64,000 bases of DNA, taken from positions 24,862,001 to 24,926,000 of the forward strand of contig NC_135806.1 in NCBI RefSeq assembly GCF_964213995.1, written 5' to 3'. The notes beneath the pieces were generated by a model. That model ran no database searches. It saw only the letters and a list, made by a program, of their open reading frames with translations, and was not told where the DNA came from. Position 1 is the stretch's first letter. Every line of letters begins with the position of its first letter. Both the position numbers and the translations under genes were made by a program. This DNA comes from Mustelus asterias. Its lineage: Eukaryota. Below are positions 2,377 through 51,324 of the stretch, in pieces.

Positions 2377-3455
2377 AGAAGGAGTTGAGTCTGCACCAAC
2401 CCTCCAACAGAGCACCTTCCCCAGGCTCTATCTCCATAACTCCATGCATTTACCCCACTAATCATCCCAATGTAAACATCTTAGGACATTAAGGGGCAAT
2501 TTAGCATGGCCAATCAACCTAACCTGTAGAATGTACAGGGTAAATGGTAGGACTCTGAAGAGTGCAGTTGAACAGAGGGATCTGGGAATACAGGTACAAA
2601 ATTCCCTAAAAGTGACGTCACAGGTGGATAGGGTCATAAAGAGTGCCTTTGGTACATTGGCCTTTATAAATCAGAGTATCGAGTATAAAAGTTGGAGTGT
2701 TATGGTAAGGTTATATAAGGCATTGGTGAGGCCGAATTTGGAGTATTGTGTACAGTTTTGGTCACCTAGTTACAGGAAGGATGTAAATAAGGTTGAAAGA
2801 GTGCAGATAAGGTTCACAAGGATGTTGCCAGGACTTGAGAAGCTGAGTTACAGAGAGAGATTGAATAGGTTGGGACTTTATTCCCTGGAGCGTAGAAGAT
2901 TGAGGGGAGATTTGATAGAGGTGTATAAGATTTTGATGGGTATAGATAGAGTGAATGCAAGCAGGCTTTTTCCGCTGAGGCTAGGGGAGAAAAAAACCAG
3001 AGGGCATGGGTTAAGGGTGAAAGGAGAAAAGTTTAAAGGGAATATTAGGGGGGGCTTCTTCACGCAGAGAGTGGTGGGAGTGTGGAATGAGCTGCCGGAT
3101 AAAGTGGTAAATGCGGGGTCACTTTTAACATTTAAGAAAAACTTGGACGGGTTCATGGATGAGAGGGGTGTGGAAGGATATGGTCCAAGTGCAGGTCAGT
3201 GGGACTAGGCAAAAAATGGTTCGGCACAGACAAGAAGGGCCAAAAGGCCTGTTTCTGAGCTGTAATTTTCTATTGTTCTTTTCTATGGTTCTATCTTTGG
3301 ACTGTGGGTAGTAACAGGAGCACCCGGAGGAAACCCATGCAGACACAGGGTGAATGCGCAGACTCCACAAAGACAGTCACCCAAGGCCGGAATGAAACTC
3401 GGGTCCCTGGCACTGTGAGGCAGCAGTGCTAACTGCTGTGCCACCATGCTGCCCA
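2377..3455 (-). mobile_element. HE1/V-type tRNA-derived SINE, split by a CR1 insertion
   Basis: tRNA-like head (revcomp GGGCAGCATGGTGGCACAGCAGTTAGCACTGCTGCCTCACAG) at ~3410-3455. The body CCTAACCTGTA|TCTTTGGACTGTGGG is interrupted at 2528/3294. Confidence 0.85.
2529..3293 (+). mobile_element. Young 5'-truncated CR1 LINE (RT C-terminus plus 3' UTR)
   Basis: Uninterrupted ORF 2531-3208 (EQRDLG...LYKALVRPNLEYCVQFWSP...LERRRLRGDLIEVYKI...FFTQRVVGVWNELP), the CR1 ORF2 end. Terminal TTCTATGGTTCTA microsatellite. Confidence 0.95.
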
Positions 3456-13650: not shown

Positions 13651-14799
13651 GGGCCCGATTTTACCATTGCGTTGCGCCTGTTTTTGGGCACGAAAACTTG
13701 GTAAAGTTGAGCGTGAAGCGAATAGCACGATCCGTGCCCAAATCCGCGCTGATTCCTCCTTTACCAAGGCCCGAAAATGGACGCGATCAGGACCGCGTCT
13801 GAAATGGACGCGGTGCAATTTAAATGGATTTGCATGCATTTAAATTGGCTTAATGAGCTGGACGCCCAAAATTACCGACATTTCCCCCTTTACCATCGCG
13901 TTTTCCCATCCAGATTCGGCGCAAAACAGACATGCTCGGCAAAAATCTGTTTTGGACGTTCTGGCTTCTGAAGGGACAGGTTCAGAGCTTTCAGCGGCTC
14001 TCTGACTCAGATCGGTGGTGGGGGGGAGGGAGGCGGGCCAGAGATGTATCTCTGGTGGTGAGGGGGGTGGGGGGGGAAGGAGGGAGGCCAGATCATTCTC
14101 TGGTAGGCGGGGTGGGGGGCGGGGGGAAGAGGAGGGCCAGATTGTTATCTGGTTGGGGGGGGGGAGGAGGAGGCAGGTCAGATGTATCTCTGGTGGGGGG
14201 GGAGGAGGAGGGAGGCCCGATCATTATCTGGTGAGGGGAGGGGGAGGAGGAGGGCCAGATGTATCTCTGGTGGGGGGGGGAGGAGGAGGGAGGCCCGATC
14301 ATTCTCTGGTGGGGGAGGGGGAGGAGGAGGGCCAGATGGATCTCTGGTGGGGGGGAGAGGAGGCAGGGGGGGTAGGGGTAGGGGGGTCCACTGCCACTCT
14401 GCGGGCGATCGATGGTGGGGAAGTGGGACAGAGGGGTCATGATCAGTCTGGGTAGTGGGGAGAGGTGGGTGGATAAGGGGAACAGTTATGTTATGGTGGT
14501 GGGGGCGATGTCTGTGGGGGCCATCACTTCCAAGCCACTTTACCCGGGCCAGGAGCGATGTGGCAGGGGAGCGTTTTTCAAATTTCTTTTTACTGCACGT
14601 GCACAGTTGAAGGTTCTGATCAGAGCAGCAGCGTATCGGGCCGTGATAAGCCCAGCCCACAGCGCAATTCAGAATCGCTGCTTTTTTTCAGGCAGAGTGT
14701 GTATGCGGGCGCCGGAGAACAGGTTTACAAGTTGGATCTGAATCATGCCCAGAATTTGCATGAATCAGCACTTTGAATTAAAATTGTAAAATCGGGCCC
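13651..14799. mobile_element. Non-autonomous Harbinger-type element (1149 bp), TSD ATT
   Basis: TIRs GGGCCCGATTTTAC / GTAAAATCGGGCCC flanked by a 3-bp duplication ATT. Internal G-rich minisatellite (AGAT...TCTCTGGTGGGGG...GAGG). Confidence 0.88.
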
Positions 14800-17534: not shown

Positions 17535-17676
17535 AATATACATCGAATAGGCAACCTGGCACTGAAGAAAAAAGACAGCAACTGTCTCTAATGATTGTTT
17601 CATTTACACTTCCTCTGGACTAATCTTCTCTTTCTGGACTCATGTCCTTTTGCCTTGCTCCACAGCTCTTTGGTAT

Positions 17677-18345
17677 GGGCGGAATTCTCCCCCAAAAATT
17701 CCAAGTGATGAATTCGCGGGAAAACTGGAGTAATTCACTTTGTTTTTTTTCAGTGGGAGTTCACACTAGAATCTCCAACATTCTGTGCAATGCAGAAGCC
17801 ACCAGCGCAAATATCATTAAATTTCCAGGTCGGGGCCTATTCCCGCCCAAGAGGCTGAAACCAGCGGGCCTCTGCGCATGTGCAGTGGCCCTAAACGGAC
17901 AGCCCCCCGTTTACTGGCCAGCTCAATCGCTGGCCAGCCCGGGACACCGCAGTGCTACTCCCCAATCCCCCCATTGCCTGATCACAGCCCCCGCGACCAT
18001 TCCTGGGCCAGCCTCGACACCCCCCTTCCTGGACCGCTCCAATCTCCAGCCCTCCCCACTGCCCCGCAGTGCCAATCCCCCCATCCCCCGTAGTGCAGAC
18101 GTCCCCGTAGACAGATTACTCCCCGGAGGACCCGCCTTCTCCCCAGTAGACACCCCCCCACTCCAGCCCGTCCCGATCACTGGCCTCTCTCCTGCCCCCA
18201 TCGATCCCAATGGCAGAGAGGCAGTGGGACCCCTCACCCCCACCGATCACTACCAGGTCTTGCCCCCTCCCATATGCCTTGCCCCTTTGGCACTGCCCCA
18301 TGCCTGGCCCGCAGTGCCAAGGTGCCGCCTGAGCATGGGCACTTT
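17677..18345. mobile_element. Truncated GC-rich DNA-transposon (Harbinger-like MITE) fragment
   Basis: Starts GGGCGGAATTCTCCC (TIR-like) and has a C-rich interior resembling the other MITEs. The second end was not found. Confidence 0.4.
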
Positions 18346-18884
18346 GTCCATAATCTCTCCTGCCTTTCATTCTATAATTTCCTTCTCTTTTGTTCTTCCA
18401 CTGTCACTGTAATTACTTAAAGCATGTTACATGTGTCCAGTCGAGACAGGAGGGAAAATATATATATATTTCCTTCAGCCGGAATGATTTATACAATTAA
18501 TAATTTTCTCTGTTTTTTTAAATGGACAATTGCTAACAAGATAACTCCAGCTGATCATGTGCTGGCTTCTGGAAGTTTCTGAGCAGTTTAAAAGTGAACA
18601 AAGGTTAACACCTCACACCTCCTGGAATGTAACAGTCCTTGCATCACATAAACATTCCAGCCAAGCCAACCCAATGGTTTCCCAAATCATTTTATTTTAC
18701 CTCCCGTTTACTGTGCATGTTATTCATAGAGGATTGAAAAACTCCAAGAGAAAGGGTTGGGGAAAACACACCACCATTTATAAAGGGGGAAAATCAAAAT
18801 TAAAATTTAAAGAAACCTTTCTGTTTGCAGATGTGTAGTGAGATGAGAAATCAGGGCTGTTTAAATTAATCCCCCTCTTGTCTG

Positions 18885-23659: not shown

Positions 23660-24882
23660 ATAAAGGTCATGCAAAAAGTCGTGCTGGAAAAGCTCAGCAG
23701 GTCTGGCAGCATCTATGGAGGAAGGAAGAGAGTTAACAGTTCGGGGTGGGGTGGGGGTGGGGGAGGGGGGGAGGGATTTTCCCATCCCACCTGCCACAGG
23801 AATCATGGTGGGTGGGGAGGAGGAGGGAGGGGCTGCATGCAAAGGTCCGTTGTCCTCAGGCGGGATTTTCCGTCCGCGCTTGCCCCAAAACCAGTAATCC
23901 CACTCTTCAAGTCTGCATGATTTTTCTTCAGAGCTAAAGAGAGGGAGAAATGTAATGGGTTTATACTGTTTAAGAAGGAGTAGAGCAGGTCAAGAAAAAT
24001 AGAAGGTTAAGGATTTGACCAAGATATCATGAGCACAAGACAAAGGGAGTGTTACTGATGGTGTTAAAGACATTTGAAGATGCTGACAGTGGCATAAAGG
24101 TAAGATAGCAGAACAAGGGTTCTACTTAAGAGCAAGTGACAGATGACCCTACAGGGGAGTTTGGGGGGGTGGCCTTGGGAAAAAATATTGATTTAAAAAG
24201 GGGGGTTAAGATGGAGGTTAGAGTTCACAGTCTGAAGTTGCTAAACACAATGACAAGTCCAGAAAGCCATAAAGTGCCTAACCAGAAGATGAGGTGATCT
24301 TGCTTCAGTTTGTGTTGGGCTTCACTAGAATATTGTAGCAGGCCAAGGATAGACATGTGGTATGAGAGCAAGATGATGAGTTGAAATAGCAGGTAACGAG
24401 AAAGTGGGGGTCATGCTTGCAGACTAAGCAAAGGTCTTTTGCAAAGCAGTCACCCAGTCTGTGGTTAGTCTTCCCAATGTAGAGGAGACTGCATTGAGAG
24501 CAGCGGATACAGTAGACCAAAGTGAAGGAGGTGCAAGTGAGGTGCTTCACCTGAATGGACTGTTTTGGGCCTTTAATGTTGAGGAGGGAGGAGGTAAAGG
24601 GGGCAGGTTTTGCGATTGCATGGGAAGGCGCCGTGAGAAGGGCATGAATAGTTGGGAGTGATGGAAGAGTGCACCAGGGAGTGGTCCCTGTGGAATGCTG
24701 ACAGGGGGCTGAGGAGAAGATTTGTGTGGTGGTGGAATCATGTTAGAGTTGGCAGATATGGCAGTGAATCACCCCGTGAATGCAGAGGTGGGCGAAATGA
24801 AAAGTGAGAACAAGGGGGACCCTATCATGGTTCTGGGAGGGAAGGGGTGAGGGCAAATGTGCATGGGATGGGTTGGACACGG
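23660..24882 (-). mobile_element. Penelope-like element (GIY-YIG endonuclease end); resumes at 29413-29487 after the Gypsy insertion
   Basis: HLTCTSFTLVYCIRCSQCSLLYIGKTNHRLGDCF...HF-like GIY-YIG motif. The sequence is continuous across the CACGG TSD. Confidence 0.8.
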
Positions 24883-25124
24883 TGATGCGCTATCAAGAAG
24901 GCGAAAGACGACCGGTGTGCCAATACAAGTGTAGGCTTTTATCCACAACAGAATCAAGAGCAGATCCCAACAAGTAACCGACCTGGACTGAACAAGGGGG
25001 AGGAGACAGCCACCTTTATACTAGGTGCCGAAGGGAGGAACCAAACTGGAAGGGGATGTGTCCAGGTATGACAAGCTCACACAACGGTGGTCCATATAGG
25101 ACAAAGGCACAACTGAGGTCCACA
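24883..25124 (-). repeat. 3' LTR of Gypsy element 1
   Basis: Direct repeat of 29163-29407, preceded by the PPT. The poly(A) signal is mutated to GATAAA. Confidence 0.95.
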
Positions 25125-25175
25125 TTCACCCCTTCCTTTAAAAAAAAACAACACGGGGATGAAGCGGAAACAATA

Positions 25176-28100
25176 TTACAAGTTCAGACGAACCAGTGGC
25201 TTGATACGCCGCCGCGATTGTTGTAGTGCAGGTCGCAGAGTCGTCCGAGCAGGGAGCGATGTCGGCCCAGGCTCCGTACAGTGAGCGTCGAGAGAAGGCG
25301 CCAGATGGTGTGAAGCGGACCGATCCGTCATCCCGTCCAGTCGTCGGGTACTGCGTGGCAACGGCTCTGGCGACTCAAGCGAGCTGTACACAGGGGCGAG
25401 AGGAGTGAGCAGTGGCCCTGGTGGCGTATGGGGAACAGTGGGAACCGGAGCTAGGGGGTGGGGGGCCGCAACAGGCTCTGGGCGCACTACATTGGAGACA
25501 GGGACTGAGGGAGGAAGAGGCGCAGCAAACTCCGAGTGGACAACACCAGGGACTGTGGGGCGGAAGGACGTGGTGACCTCAGGGGCACCCGCGGGTGCCA
25601 AGTCACGGACAGAAACCGTGTCCTCCTGCCCATCAGGGTACGCTACGTAAGCGTATTGAGGATTAGCGTGGAGCAATTGGACCTCCTCGACCAAGGGATC
25701 TGCCTTATGGGTCTGGACATGCTTCCAAAGCAGGATGGGCCCCGGGGACATCAGCCAATCCGGGAGCGAAGTACCCAAGGAGGACATCCTGGGAAACGAA
25801 AACATCCACTTGTGAGGGGTCGTATTGGTCGCTGTGCACAAGAGTGACCTAATGGAATGTAATGCGTCCGGAAGGACGTCTTGCCAACGGCTGACTGGAA
25901 GGCCCCTAGACCGTAACGCTAATAGAACGGCCTTCCAGACGGTTGCGTTCTCCCGCTCTACTTGACCATTGCCCCTGGGGTTATAGCTAGTGGTGTGGCT
26001 GGAGGCAACGCCTTTGGCGAGCAGGTACTGCCTCAGCTCGTCACTCATGAAAGAGGACCCACGATCGCTAGGAACATAGGCTCGGAAGCCGAACAGGGTG
26101 AAGAGCTTATTCAGGGTCCGAATCACTGTAGCCGTGGTCATGTCCGAGCAGGGGAAGGCAAAAGGGAAACGTGAGTATTCATCAATGATATTCAGGAAAT
26201 AAACATTGCAGTTAGAGGGAGGGGGCCTTTAAAATCAATGCTAAGGCGCTCAAACGTGCGAGTGGCCTTTACAAAGTGTGCCCTACCTGGCCGGTAGAAC
26301 TGCGGTTTGCACTCAGCGCAGAACCTGCATTGCCTGGTAATCGTCCGGACTTCCTCGAGGGAGAAGGGCAGGTTACGGGATTTGACAAAATGGAAAAATC
26401 TGGTGACACCCGGATGACAGAGGTCGTTATGGAGGGACTGTAGCTGGTCTAGTTGGGCGCTGGCACATGATCCACGGGACAGGGCATCTAGGGGCTCATT
26501 GAGCTTCCCGGGCCGGTACATGATGTCATATCTGTAGGTGGAGAGCTCAATCCTCCACCGCAAGATCTTGTCATTCTTAATCTTGCCCTTTTGCCTGGTG
26601 TTAAACAGGAAGGCAACTGACCGCTGGTCCGTAATTAAGGTGAATCGTTGGCCCGCAAGATAATGGCGCCAGTGCCGGACGGTTTCCACGATGGCCTGGG
26701 CCTCCTTCCCGACCGAGGAGTGTCGAATCTCAGGGCCTTGTAAGGTCCGGGAAAAGAAGGCCACCGGACGGCCCCTCTGGTTAAGGGTGGTGGCTAGGGC
26801 AAAGTCAGATGCATCACTTTCCACTTGGAATGGGATGGATTCGTCCACAGCATGCATTGCGGCCTTCGCGATGTCCGCTTTGATGTCGTCGAAGGCCCGA
26901 CGGGCCTCCTCCGCCAGGGGAAAAGAGGTCGATTTTAGGAGCGGACGGGCTTTATCCGCGTAACGGGGAACCCACTGGGCATAATAGAAGAAGAAGCCCA
27001 GGCATCTCCTCAGTGCTTTGAGGGTAGTAGGAAGGGGAAGCTGCATAAGGGGACGCATACGGGCTGGGTCGGGGCTAAGGACACCATTTTCTATCACGTA
27101 CCCAAGGATGGCGAGGCGGCGTGTCCGGAAAACACACTTCGCCTCATTATATGTGAGGTTCAGGAGAGTGGCCGTACGTAGGAATTTTTGTAGGTTGGCA
27201 TCATGATCCTGCAGGTCATGGCCGCAGATGGTGACGTTATCCAGATACGGGAAAGTGGCCCGTAGCCCATGCTGGTCTACCATTTGATCCATGGCCCGCT
27301 GGAAGACTGAGACCCCATTGGTGACACCAAAGGGGACTCGGAGGAACTGGTAGAGGCGGCCATCCGCCTCAAAGGCAGTATATGGGCGATCCTCCGAGCG
27401 GATAGAGAGCTGGTGGTAAGCCGATTTCAAATCGATCATCGAGAAAACCCTATAGTGCGCGATGCGGTTGACTATGTCCGCGATACGGGGAAGAGGATAC
27501 GCATCTAGTTGGGTATACCTGTTTATGGTCTGGCTGTAGTCAATCACCATGCGGTGTTTCTCCCCCAATTTAACTACGACCACTTGCGCCCTCCAGGGGC
27601 TGGTGCTGGCCTGGATAATCCCTTCCCGGAGCAACCGTTGTACCTCGGACCGAAAGAAGGCCCAGTCATCCGCACTATAGCGCCTACTCTTGGTGGCTAT
27701 AGGCCTACAATCCGGGGTGAGGTTATCAAATAAGGCGGGGCGGGTGATCTTGAGGGTCGAGAGACTGCAGGTGGTGCGCGAGGGGCGCTGCAGTGACGGC
27801 GCCTTGCAGACGGAAAGCGGGGGGTAAGGGCCATCATACTGCAGGGTGACGCTCCTATGATGGCTGAGGAAATCTAACCCCAGCAGTACAGCTGCGCAGA
27901 GTCGCGGCAGCACAAGGAGCCGAAAACACTCGTAGACTGTGCCCTGTACCGTCAGCGTCACCAAGCAGCACCCGAGGACCTCCACCGAGTGGGAATTCGA
28001 GGCCATGGAGATGGTCTGGCTCCAGGGTCGCATGGGAAGGGCATATTGACGCACTGTGCAAGGGTGTATAAAACTTTCCGTGCTCCCACAGTTGAACAGG

Positions 28101-29137
28101 CAGTTTTCTGCATGACCATTTACGTTGATCTCCATTATTGACTTGGAGAGTTGAAGAGGCTGCGACTGGTCCAGGCAAATCGATGCCACCGTCGAATCAA
28201 AGAAGAATCTGTCTTCGTTGCCGTCTGATGACGTCACGGATAAAGCTTCCTGCTCAGCGCGTCTTGATGCCAGTCTCAAAGATGGCGATTCCCGCACTTC
28301 CGGTGACCGCATCAAAGATGGCGATTCCCGCACTTCCGGTGACCGCAATAAAGATGGCGATTCGCGCGCAGCCGCCGCCTCCATTAAAGATGGCTGCGCC
28401 CGCGGAACACACGTGGCGCCACGAGGCTTCGGAAGCGGCTTTGACCGGCAGACTTTAGCGAAGTGGCCTAGCTTACCGCATCCGGAGCAAATCGCGTCCT
28501 TCGCCGGGCAGCGACGCCGGGGGTGCTTGGGTAGGCCGCAAAAGTATCATTTGGGCCCCGCCGGAACAGCCGTCGCGGTGGAGCCGTCAGTAGAACGGGA
28601 TGCAAGGTATGACCCGAGATTGTGAGAGGCCGTTTCTAACGTTTCAGCCATCGTGGCTGTTCTTCGGAGATCTAGGTCATCTTGTTCCAGCAGGCGCTGC
28701 CGGATGTATGTAGACTCAATGCCCGCGACGTAGGCGTCGCGGATCAGGTCCTCCGTGTTCTGAGCTGCTGTAACAGCCTTACAGTCACAAGCTCGAGCTA
28801 GGACCCGCAGGGCGCGCAGAAATTGGGCGCACAATTCTCCTGGCTGCTGCTTGCGGGTAGTTAGGAGATGTCTGGCGTAAACCACGTTAGGGCTCTTTCG
28901 GAACTGCCCTTTTAGGAGTTCGATAGCGTCCGCGTATGTAGCAGCGTCCCGGAAGATTCCATAGACTGCTTCGCTTACCCGGGCATGGAGCACGTGGAGT
29001 TTAGCGTCGTCGGTGTCGATGGCCGTAGCGGTGTCGACGAATGCTACGAAGCAGTCCAGCCAATGATCGAATTTATCAGAGGCTCCAACCTCTTGAGGGT
29101 CTAATGCTATCTTGTCAGGTTTTAGAAACTGCTCCAT
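25176..29137 (-). pseudogene. Gypsy gag-pol polyprotein, originally one ORF, with one nonsense codon (28547-28549) and one frameshift (~26200)
   Basis: Gag MEQFLKPDK...; zinc-knuckle region *YFCGLPKHPRRRC / CSGCGKLGHFAKVC; protease CLFNCGSTESF; RT IDLKSAYHQ...PFGVTNG...YLDN; RNase H ESDASD...TDQ; integrase HNDLCH...CRFC, DFKGP, SDRGSSF, NGQVER. ORFs 28547-29176 and 26192-28384 are in the same frame. Confidence 0.92.
28278..28395. repeat. 36-bp tandem repeat between gag and protease (SPSLxRSPEVRE)
   Basis: AAAGATGGC recurs at 28278, 28314, 28350 and 28386. Confidence 0.9.
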
Positions 29138-29162
29138 GCTGGTCAACTGTTGTGAATAAAAT

Positions 29163-29407
29163 TGATGCGCTATCAATAAGGCGAAAGACTACCGGTGTGC
29201 CAATACAAGTGTAGGCTTTTATTCACAACAGAATCAGGAACAGATCCCAACAAGTAACCGACCTGGACTGAACAAGGGGGAGGAGACAGCCACCTTTATA
29301 CTAGGTGCCGAGGGGAGGAACCAAACTGGAAGGGAATGTGTCCAGGTGTGACAAGCACACACAACGGTGGTCCATATAGGACAAAGGCACAACTGAGGTC
29401 CACCACA
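29163..29407 (-). repeat. 5' LTR of Gypsy element 1
   Basis: TATAAA (29295-29300, minus) and AATAAA (29218-29223, minus). Confidence 0.95.
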
Positions 29408-30366
29408 CACGGTTGACTGCCCTGTCAACCACAATTTGGGGAACTCTCGGCTCAGGAAAAAGGGAGATATATCAGAAACGCTGTTTTGCCCGCTTTAGCT
29501 AATTGTGCACTTGTAAAAAGATCAAACCATCCAAAACCTCATTAATTCTCTGTCTAATTACACATATGTGTTTAAAAGAAAGGCAGAACTCTCTTCAAGG
29601 GTTTCTGGAGGAAAATTGGAATGACTTATTTTTTGAATTAAAGGTCAATACAACATAAGCTGGCAATTAAACATCAATTGAAATAAATGACATCACCCTT
29701 CAACTTTTTTCATTGGCCCATCATATCGAGATCTTAATTGCCACGACTTCTGAGGTTTGGAAGCTGAAAAAGGATCACAAGATTTTAATTATTCTTGGTT
29801 GAATATGACAACCCTTGTTTTATCTTTCGGCGGTATCTATGGATCTATAAAGACAGAAACAGAGTTAACAAAAAGATAAAAGCAAAATACTGTGCGGATG
29901 CTGGAATTTGAAACAAAACCATAAAATGCTGGAAAATCTGTGGAGAGAGAATAGAGTCAATGTTTCGAGTCTGGGTTACCCTTCGTCAGAGCTAACAGTT
30001 CAGGTTGATGATATTTCTTCAAACCTCAGTGACAGGAGTGCAGTTTTGTAGCCAAGCTAAAGGCTAGATGAAAGGTCATCGACCTGAAACATTGGGTAGA
30101 CAAAAACGGTCTTAATTCCCAGTCGGAAACACAGAAGTGGCCATGGCAGCGCATCAGTTGTGATCCAATTCCAGTGGAGGTCAATTGAGAAGCAGTCTCA
30201 GGGAACTTGTCCAATTAAGGATGGTGGGCAGATCAGGGAACCAGCAGTACCAGGAGGAGGGTTCGCAGAGTGGCAGCCCCACTGGTAGAGGTGAGTACTG
30301 CTGAGGCAGACAGGACAGCGAAGGCACTTCAATGAAGGGGTGCCTTCTGAAGCATTGTGAAATTGT

Positions 30367-48543: not shown

Positions 48544-51324
48544 TGTGGTGAACCACTGTAACACTGTCTGTGTGTGGGATGTGCCTGGGCACGCCCCTGC
48601 TGCCTTGGTCCGGGGCTCCGCTCTCCTCGGGGTATAAAGGTGGCTGCTCTCCGCCCCTTTGCCTCAGTTCGAGTTGGCCATCGGTTTGGGAGTGCTTCTG
48701 TTCTTGTTAATAAAAGCCTGTTGTTCCGCAACCTCTAGTCTTTGCGTGTATCAATGGTGCATCAATTTTATTAACAACATTGTTGAAATGGAGCAACTCC
48801 TGAAACCTGACAAATTGGATCTGGATCCGCAGGCAGTTGGCACCTCTAATTCTTTTGATCACTGGCTGCACTGTTTTGAGACCTTCATCACCTCCTCCTC
48901 CTCAATCGTCGTAACAGACATAGACAAACTGCATGTGCTCCACGCCCGCGTCAGCGCTCACGTCTTCGCGATGATCCGCGACGCACAGACCTACCAGGAG
49001 GCAATCGATCTCCTCAAGGGCCAATACAACCGGCAACCGAACGAAGTCTACGCCAGACATCTGCTGGCCACTCGCAGACAGCAGCCCGGGGAATCAACTG
49101 AGCAATTCCTGCGCAAATTGCGTGCACTCGGCAGAGCCTGCAACTGCAAGGCCGTTTCAGCCGCCCAAAACGCCGACGACCTGATCAGAGATGCCTTTGT
49201 CGCAGGCATCAGGTCAACCTATATCCAGCAGCGCCTGCTGGAACAAGGTGGGCTGGACCTTAAGAAAACTGTGGAACTTGCCAGCTCGCTGGAGGTGGCT
49301 TTCCGGAACCTCGAGGCCTACACCCCCAACCACGAGGGCGCACTGTGGACACCGTGACCGCAGCCATCGCTGTACCCAGGAGGACCGCAAACCTACTCCA
49401 TGCCCCGTCCCGAAGTCGAACTGACCATTGCGTCAGTCCCCGGAGGCCCGAGATGCTACTTCTGTGGCCTGGAGAAGCACCCACGACGACGCTGCCCGGC
49501 GAAAGACGCGATCTGCTCTGGCTGTGGTAAGAAGGGTCACTACCTGAAGGTTTGCAGGGCAAAATCGGCCCCCAGGCCCAGCAGTGCCACGTGCGATCCG
49601 CGGGAGGGACCATCGTCGACGCCATCGACCACGTGCGATCCGCGGGTGCCGCCATTTTGGATGCCAGCAGCCGCGTGCGACCCACGGAGGTCGCCATCTT
49701 GGACGCCATCAGCCATGTGCGACCATGGGTGGACGCCATCAGCCATGGGTGACATCAGCCGACTCACGGGTGCCGCCATTTTGGGAACCGTCCACCGCAT
49801 CACCTAATCCGACAGTGGCCTCGGTCGCGTTGGACCAGTCCAGGCCTCACCAGCTCGTCTGGTCGATGATGGGCATCAAGGCAAACGGCCACACTACTAA
49901 CTGCTTATTTGACAGTGGGAGTACGGAGAGTTTCATCCACCCTAACACGGTGAGGCGCTATGCACTGCCAGTACTGCCCATGCAGCAATCAATCTCTATG
50001 GCTTCGACGTCCCGGTCAGTGAATGTCCTTGTGTACTGTGTAGCGAATCTGATTGTACGGGGCACGGTGTACAACAAGTGCAGGCTCCTCATGCTGCCAC
50101 AGCTCTGCGCTGCCGTACTACTGGGGCTAGATTTCATGTGCCACCTCGGGAGCGTCACTATGGTGTATAATGGGCCTTTTCCCTCAATCTCCGTCCAAAA
50201 TCCACAGCTAACAGACCAGCCACCGCGCACCACCTGTGGTGTCACAACCCTCAAAGTCGCCCCTCCCTTGCTTTTTAAGCACCTCACCCCCGACTGCAAG
50301 CCCATTGCCACCAAAAGCAGACGGTACAGTGCTGGTGATAGAGCGTTCATCAAGTCCGAGGTGCGACACCTCTTGGGGGAGGGGATCATTGAGGCCAGTA
50401 CCAGTCCCTGGAGAGCCCAAGTGGTGGTTGTCAAGACTGGGGAGAAACTTCGCATGGTCATTGACTACAGTCGGACCATCAACCGATACACGCAGCTGGA
50501 CGCGTATCCCCTTCCCCGCATATCTGACATGGTTAATTAGATTGCGCAATATCGGGTGTTCTCCGCCATTGATTTGAAGTCTGCATACCACCAGCTCCAT
50601 ATCCGCCCGGAAGACCGCCAATACACTGCCTTCGAGGCGGATGGCCGTCTCTACCACTTCCTTCGGGTCCCCTTCGGCATCACCAACGGGGTCTCGGTTT
50701 TCCAGCGTGAGATGGACTGAATGGTGGACCAGAACGGGCTGCGGGCCACCTTCCCGTACCTGGATAACGTCACCATCTGCGGCCACGATCAGCTCAAAAC
50801 GTTGTCCATGATGCACCAGAGTCACAGCATGCTCATTTAGCCCCTGTGTACGACACGCCTGAGCCCAGGAGCAGCATCCACATACCCGGCAGTCTGAAGG
50901 CGCTACGGATGGCACCACCGGTTATGGATTGACGCCTGACTCATCGCCGTGGCCTCCTGAACCGGCACCATGGCTGACACTGTGGCGGTCGCTGCGGCAG
51001 ATCAAGCCCCCGGAGAGACTGAACTTATAATTTGAATCAATAACTTGTGACTGTCATTTCCACCACCTCGCCCCTGCTGAACTCTTTTTAAACAGGGGGT
51101 GAATGTGGTGAACCACTGTAACACTGTCTGTGTGTGGGATGTGCCTGGGCACGCCCCTGCTGCCTTGGTCCGGGGCTCCACCCTCCTCGGGTTATAAAGG
51201 TGGCTGCTCTCCGCCCCTTTGCCTCAGTTCGAGTTGGCCATCGGTTTGGGAGTGCTTCTGTTCTTGTTAATAAAAGCCTGTTGTTCCGCAACCTCTAGTC
51301 TTTGCAAGTATCAATGGTGCATCA
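48544..51324 (+). mobile_element. Internally deleted Ty3/Gypsy LTR retrotransposon (2781 bp), TSD AAAGT
   Basis: 221-bp LTRs at 48544-48764 and 51104-51324 (5 differences by eye). TSD at 48539-48543 and 51325-51329. PPT AAACAGGGGGTGAA. Gag, PR (CLFDSGSTESF) and RT to YLDNVTICGHD are present; RNase H and integrase core are absent. Confidence 0.96.
48788..50790 (+). pseudogene. Gypsy gag-pro-RT, disrupted
   Basis: MEQLLKPDKLDLDP...; stops at 49355, 50538 and 50718; frameshift near 49750-49800; CYFCGLEKHPRRRC / CSGCGKKGHYLKVC. Confidence 0.9.

Follow-up and report, generated by a model that had tools for sequence, protein, structure and literature searches.

We find that element 1, a Ty3/Gypsy LTR retrotransposon in the window (the whole 64,000-nucleotide stretch of Mustelus asterias DNA analysed here), carries in place of a tRNA-type primer-binding site (PBS) an exact complement of a 15-nt segment of its own LTR, referred to here as the arm, and that this pairing is shared by its relatives. 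We consider it probable that the arm, which would lie inside the transcript, primes reverse transcription in cis. Self-priming had been suggested as the function of this complementarity by the original prediction, which was made from the sequence of the window, and it gains support here from the co-variation of arm and PBS, from haplotypes in which both have changed together, and from the turning points of aberrant insertions.

Structure of element 1 and its primer-binding site

Element 1 has the TG...CA LTRs, 5-bp target-site duplication, polypurine tract and gag–protease–RT–RNase H–integrase domain order of the Ty3/Gypsy elements (Table 1), and among solved structures that of Ty3 is closest to its reverse transcriptase (RT). 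The two LTRs share 96% identity and the gag-pol frame is broken, both by a stop codon lying in frame behind gag and by a shift of frame ahead of the integrase core. No Pfam match to a chromodomain or a Tf2-like SH3 was found in the integrase ORF, and the closest named proteins to Gag are from sharks and rays (48–58% identity), followed by those of nematodes and a moth.

The 5' LTR terminates with ...CATCA at 29163 and is followed by a single spacer A at 29162 (minus strand). The PBS at 29161–29147 reads TTTTATTCACAACAG and is the exact reverse complement of 29231–29217, as had been predicted, with the run of complementarity being exactly 15 bp and with a mismatch at both flanks. The stem formed by the arm and PBS is present in both the minimum-energy and centroid folds (both predictions; z -1.89). 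The 3' LTR repeats the arm at 24937–24951, where it differs by one A>G substitution (24943), and among 100 copies of such elements that we examined, the 3' LTR arm was fully complementary to the PBS in 76 of the 82 for which a 3' LTR was located. The expectation that the stem forms only at the 5' LTR therefore holds for a local hairpin, but not as a claim that only the 5' arm can pair.

The window also contains a second element of the same clade (48544–51324, plus strand) with LTRs that are 98% alike and a target duplication of AAAGT. It has lost an internal segment from within RT to the 3' region of integrase, and retains both LTRs as well as a 12-bp stem which differs from that of element 1 by one compensatory change (G-C to T-A). 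Elsewhere in the window, two plus-strand frames free of stops (2462–3208, 248 codons, and 17624–18412, 262 codons) gave no Pfam match, numerous SINE-like repeats are scattered about, and there is a G-rich 38–39 nt array at 14066–14370.

Table 1. Positions of features of element 1 and of the second related element in the window.
Feature	Position	Strand	Remarks
Element 1 (Ty3/Gypsy LTR retrotransposon)	24883-29407	minus
5' LTR of element 1, TG...CA	29163..29407	minus	245 nt
3' LTR of element 1	24883..25124	minus	242 nt
Target-site duplication CCGTG flanking element 1	24878-24882 and 29408-29412
Polypurine tract preceding the 3' LTR of element 1	25125..25139	minus
gag-pol of element 1	25176..29137	minus	Protease, RT, RNase H, integrase core
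TATA box (TATAAA)	29295..29300	minus	82-87 nt ahead of arm end in 28/30 relatives
Initiator-like TCAGT	29267..29271	minus	Predicted start A at 29269
Primer arm	29217..29231	minus	15 nt; includes AATAAA at 29223-29218
Arm 3' end / RCC, predicted cut region	29213..29217	minus	Turning points of aberrant insertions; RCC behind arm in 17/22 distant families
Loop, predicted strong-stop DNA template	29162..29216	minus	55 nt; remaining R, U5, LTR-end CA and one-base spacer A
Primer-binding site	29147..29161	minus	Exact complement of arm
Arm and PBS of second related element	48704-48715 (arm) and 48766-48777 (PBS), within 48704..48777	plus	12 bp

Co-variation of the arm and PBS across the genome

A search of the genome for the LTR–PBS junction, using a pattern in which the only fixed parts were AATAAA, the LTR end and TTTTATT, returned 11,008 matches compared with 4 for a reversed-pattern control. 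The PBS was identical in all 28 copies read among the 30 best-scoring ones, a set which is biased toward the query. From an alignment of 31 junctions (27 of them distinct, with the fold-back locus L052 excluded), RNAalifold recovered precisely the 15-bp helix and no conserved structure inside the loop. In the 27 distinct rows, 97.5% of cells were paired compared with 41–55% in slid controls, and 68 of the arm/PBS changes were double-sided versus 2 that were one-sided; it should be noted that seven pairs were fixed by the search pattern and are uninformative in this alignment. The co-variation by which the original prediction proposed to check the helix across family members thus supports it.

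When 89 ordinary junctions were compared, pairs 8–15 were Watson-Crick in 74–88 of them and pair 16 in only six, the commonest run of pairing was 15 bp (57/89), and 31 distinct PBS 13-mers were found, each of which tracked the arm of its own LTR. G-U pairs are nearly absent from the helix. In one family group of 1,481 copies, for which the search pattern left 12 of the 15 pairs free, 95 of the first 100 copies were paired at all 15 positions (counted by eye). Judged by these comparisons, the complementarity between arm and PBS is not due to chance. A short hairpin located right behind the arm was enriched only about twofold (13/22 versus 6.3 expected, and 12/21 versus 6.9).

The PBS changes with the arm

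Amongst 44 ATTAAA-type copies of one family group, which represent four arm haplotypes of a single lineage, 40 were perfectly paired. When two of the haplotypes were compared (25 copies against 2), net divergence was 0.000 both in U3 plus R and over 1.3 kb of the internal region, but 3/15 arm positions and the matching three positions of the PBS were different; the new arm is present in both LTRs. In these sequences the PBS behaves as if it were a copy of the arm, and we propose that the two match because the primer is copied into the plus strand. Such copying would account for the match but not for the speed with which arm and PBS change.

This speed is apparent in L291–L320 and L405–L420, where change in the arm and PBS has greatly outpaced that in the remainder of the element (3/15 positions versus net zero in 1.6 kb). 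The changes are mostly A>T and AATAAA or ATTAAA is always retained; candidate causes are a transfer site prone to error, or selection favouring divergence from sibling families or from small RNAs. We also note five loci (L260, L277, L397, L401 and L402) in which the 5' and 3' LTR arms are from different subfamilies and the PBS matches one or the other, which fits intermolecular second-strand transfer or later recombination. The subfamily group used to map crossovers is a continuum of mosaics, and L049 was dropped as a candidate crossover as it differs by one base in the 5' arm only. The single-base change in L385 is confined to the PBS and is to the letter of a sister subfamily. The PBS complement has been lengthened to about 22 and 19 nt in L351 and L038, respectively, before the normal leader resumes, and a tandem duplication of 20 nt in L376 ends in the arm.

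Distribution of the stem amongst distant relatives

An RT-based scan retrieved 80 metagenome and six genome-collection loci, and we restricted the stem test to the 39 with a gag start and sufficient upstream DNA. A perfect 10–18 bp stem adjoining the LTR end was found in 33 of these 39 loci, where shuffles average 4.3–5.8, and five of the six misses have an interrupted or shifted stem. Loss of pairing in most family members, which the original prediction had named as speaking against it, is not what these loci show. We grouped the distant loci into 22 families with unrelated LTRs, and in 17 of these RCC follows directly behind the arm.

In an RT tree, all 30 stem-bearing rows were placed inside one group of 72 rows, with 40 lower-identity Gypsy RTs outside (SH-aLRT 99); this was a quick tree with a midpoint root and included no named Tf1 or sushi sequence. 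The stem-bearing rows share their group with the nematode, moth and ray proteins. Elements of this clade are compact (4.2–4.5 kb) with a single ORF, and none of the 13 long in-clade polyproteins had a match to a chromodomain or Tf2-type SH3, whereas SH3_Tf2-1 was matched in 4/13 outside proteins. On the basis of the loci sampled, the arm/PBS arrangement is clade-wide.

Six complete or partial clade elements (L141–L146) were found within contigs of bacterial metagenome-assembled genomes and are probably host contamination, and no relative was found in viral contigs. Cigr-1 from Ciona intestinalis is a compact, single-ORF Gypsy element with LTRs of about 245 bp, and is a candidate name for the clade that may include the elements we describe. 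The Cigr-1 clade is reported from molluscs in the accessible part of PMC6238403, and a motif search of four of the five supplements to that paper found no sequences.

Aberrant insertions and the probable end of the template

Fold-back junctions, in which the PBS runs into the reverse complement of R, were found at least 160 times (146 + 14), with 14 seen in family 1 where there were 879 ordinary junctions. We read 84 fold-backs and these included 56 U3-to-U3 palindromes with 5-bp duplications (≤1 mismatch), eight with an inverted U5 start and a duplication, and 20 without a duplication by the motifs used. The U3-to-U3 palindromes terminate precisely where the LTR starts, and they fit a plus strand that would have ended in the PBS and snapped back on its own arm before integration. 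The fold-back LTRs, of which there are at least 160, show DNA ends at the PBS. Just one of the 84 stops at the predicted transcription start (L154, in which copying proceeds through the arm and R as far as the initiator before a jump; this is a single case with microhomology), and the other 83 run through the TATA region.

The palindromic U3-to-U3 insertions with target duplications (at least 56 within L147–L230) amount to about 1.5% of junctions, and are stable inverted repeats of 200–300 bp with two outward promoters. In a further fold-back, L425, the U3 side ends at an internal CA and is flanked by a perfect target duplication, which indicates a cryptic attachment site.

Insertions of a second type open with the minus-strand strong-stop sequence and then double back. 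In the patterns used to find them, the turn could fall anywhere within a gap of 14–137 nt and the U5 end had to be TGATGCGC; 20 matches were obtained, representing 18 loci. We excluded two head-to-head products flanked on each side by a PBS, where the turn lies 10 and 15 nt into the arm, as well as a nested LTR end; the remaining 15 begin at an inverted U5 attachment end. For 11 of these 15 the turn is located at the junction of arm and loop, no more than about 3 nt from the arm 3' end; two turn within about 11 nt before the junction at long microhomology and two about 20 nt before it, and none turns between +5 and the predicted start. The turn window could be computed for 10 of the 11 and was always within -6..+4 of the junction, with 2–24 equally good snap-back sites lying further on. 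The sequence copied past the turn comprises U5, the spacer A and the PBS, which is to be expected of an arm that served as primer and was attached to that DNA.

It should be noted that the 11 junction turns represent about seven junction types in five family groups, and so fewer independent events than loci, and that each has 3–5 nt of self-homology. Two products found with other patterns (L155 and L190) extend past the junction into R or U3. As HIV-1 strong-stop DNA is known to snap back at its 3' end (the accessible part of PMC6088434), the turns would most simply mark the end of the template at the boundary between UAAA and RCC, and they suggest that the template is cut at the arm 3' end and that priming is by the arm in cis. 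At L431 and L435 the 5' end is a snapped-back inverted U5 piece followed by the PBS and a normal gag, with no U3 or R.

Proposed priming mechanism and alternative explanations

In the mechanism we propose, the leader RNA would fold the arm onto the PBS and be cut at the arm 3' end, between UAAA and RCC, to yield the primer, with the RNase H of the element's own RT as the candidate enzyme by analogy with Tf1. RT would then copy the 48–55 nt loop into a strong-stop DNA of only about 50–55 nt, the first transfer would rely on the short R segment that follows the poly(A) hexamer in the 3' R, and the primer would later be copied into the plus strand so that the PBS is rewritten from the arm in every cycle. 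This rewriting would account both for compensation being instant and for the scarcity of G-U pairs. Two points count against such priming in cis: a capped 53-nt primer would by itself leave the sharp 15-nt limit unexplained, and the homology available for the first transfer would be only about 15–25 nt.

The position of the arm within the transcript depends on where transcription starts. TATA is followed by an initiator-like YYAGT at a spacing of 31–33 nt in 27/30 copies, in which the initiator is 50–54 nt upstream of the arm end, and one further relative has its TATA 68 nt ahead of the arm end after a deletion. A start at 29269 is inferred for element 1; counted from there, the arm would span about +39 to +53 and the PBS +109 to +123. 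The arm would then begin 38 nt behind the predicted start, in agreement with the original prediction that the pairing partner is internal, unlike the first bases used by Tf1. Contigs from public runs presumed to be of RNA provided no start, end or poly(A) joint, and we draw no conclusion from them about expression.

The sharp end of pairing past 15 bp is what a 5' end would give, and a mechanism like that of Tf1 itself, with a second start at the first base of the arm and a primer consisting of the first 13–15 nt cut in cis at the same junction, would explain it. The accessible part of PMC5341516 describes alternative start sites in Tf2, and the turning points are equally compatible with a cut at the arm end in this case. 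We nonetheless regard a second start as unlikely, as the TATA and initiator are found at canonical spacing 50–54 nt before the arm end in 27/30 copies, no conserved promoter was found about 30 nt ahead of the arm in the 30 copies, and L154 copies the arm and R up to the initiator (again, a single case with microhomology).

Priming by the 3' end of a transcript, either full-length or terminated early, trimmed to the arm and acting in trans or by circularisation so that the whole template to the cap is copied, had been offered as an alternative in the original prediction and seems to us less likely still. It would draw on the full pairing of the 3' LTR arm with the PBS (76/82 copies), on the fact that in most families the poly(A) hexamer is where the arm ends, and on the change in L385 that affects the PBS alone. 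It also predicts stops at the cap, where none of the 15 insertions turn compared with 11/15 at the arm end, so that the aberrant products argue against it, and the exact coincidence of the palindrome ends with the LTR start is instead what plus-strand snap-back predicts.

The 5' AAUAAA of HIV-1 is occluded in RNA structure, and masking of the 5' poly(A) signal had likewise been suggested for the stem in element 1. The hexamer in the arm stays AATAAA or ATTAAA in this genome while its neighbours vary, which agrees with the suggestion, but among the 22 distant families a canonical hexamer is found within the arm in 14, is absent from the stem in eight, and is exposed in the loop in four. Given the eight families whose stem lacks a canonical hexamer, we consider masking to be at most a secondary function and not the conserved core; it might be a side effect where the arm holds the hexamer, though we hold this only tentatively. 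The further step, that the stem is no more than an RNA structure that hides the signal or circularises the genome while some other primer is used, is improbable. It would be in keeping with the hexamer conserved inside the stem here and in the 14 families, and with the short distance, about 50 nt, between the signal and the predicted start, but G-U pairs would be tolerated in a purely structural helix, which would require neither a fixed length nor a start one base behind the LTR, the eight families without a stem hexamer and the four exposing one do not fit, and no other primer site is present.

Finally, priming by a host tRNA or tRNA fragment, with the LTR complement incidental, has a negligible probability: because of the co-variation it would need one tRNA fragment per family, given that the 31 PBS sequences in 89 copies follow their own arms with rare haplotypes included, and no observed PBS begins with TGG, as the original prediction had concluded from the one in element 1.

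Comparison with known elements

Self-priming is usually tied to the Tf1/sushi chromoviruses and, to our knowledge, has been shown experimentally only for Tf1 of fission yeast. Tf1 and Tf2 (Schizosaccharomyces pombe), Tj1 (S. japonicus) and the Tf1/sushi group are likewise Ty3/Gypsy elements that have no tRNA site and a PBS complementary to their own LTR. According to the accessible parts of PMC7175516 and PMC4600332, the Tf1 primer is the transcript's first 11 bases and is released by an RNase H cut between bases 11 and 12. Release by a cut is also predicted for the present clade, in which the arm would be internal (+39 to +53 by the promoter motifs) rather than the first bases. Unlike in the Tf1/sushi group, the arm is 13–18 nt long, ends with TAAA ahead of RCC and usually holds the poly(A) hexamer, and the chromovirus-type integrase C-terminus of that group has no counterpart here, where neither a chromodomain nor a Tf2-type SH3 was matched. 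By RT the present elements group apart from the 40 lower-identity Gypsy RTs, in a tree which, as noted above, has no named Tf1 or sushi sequence.

Self-priming has also been predicted for the plant Tcn1 chromoviruses and TAR/Houba Copia elements from an LTR complement of at least 10 bp located 0–5 bp behind the 5' LTR (PMC6317226, accessible part). This is the same signature in other lineages and hosts, and the accessible account gives no overlap with a poly(A) signal and no strong-stop evidence. The 'conserved hairpin site' of the fungal GalEa Copia elements takes the primer position without a tRNA and has conserved complementarity (PMC5445492, accessible part), but that account places the hairpin outside the LTR and reports no complement of the LTR, whereas the partner in our elements is inside the LTR. 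HIV-1 shares the snap-back of strong-stop DNA, as far as the accessible source describes it, but uses a tRNA primer and its snap-back is a dead end; the snap-back products seen here run into the arm complement and are rescued and integrated. tRNA-primed Gypsy elements have a PBS that starts with TGG and matches a tRNA 3' end, a start which is not seen in the present elements.

We found no description of this arrangement in the literature, in a search to which Repbase, GyDB and most subscription papers were external and so a prior description is possible. The accessible parts of PMC3601003, PMC6238403, PMC11117352, PMC12471100 and PMC12801592 contain no account of the arrangement and no name for the clade.

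Significance

Taken as a whole, we tentatively suggest a large, animal-wide clade of non-chromovirus Gypsy elements with its own tRNA-free priming, in which the capped leader may be cut behind the hexamer, the helix may serve as primer, poly(A) mask and fast self-correcting family barcode, and the cut site may be read from integrated copying errors; this full picture is more doubtful than priming by the arm itself. An internal primer alters the expected length of the strong-stop DNA, the R homology available for transfer, and the way in which LTR finders should call the PBS. The strong-stop DNA is predicted to be about 55 nt, ending at the complement of GCC, compared with about 107 nt if copying continued to the cap, and the integrated snap-back products would allow strong stops to be mapped from genome sequence alone. 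Our results point to a second large lineage of Gypsy elements, with more than 11,000 junctions in one vertebrate genome, that replicates with no host tRNA and would evade silencing by 3' tRNA fragments.
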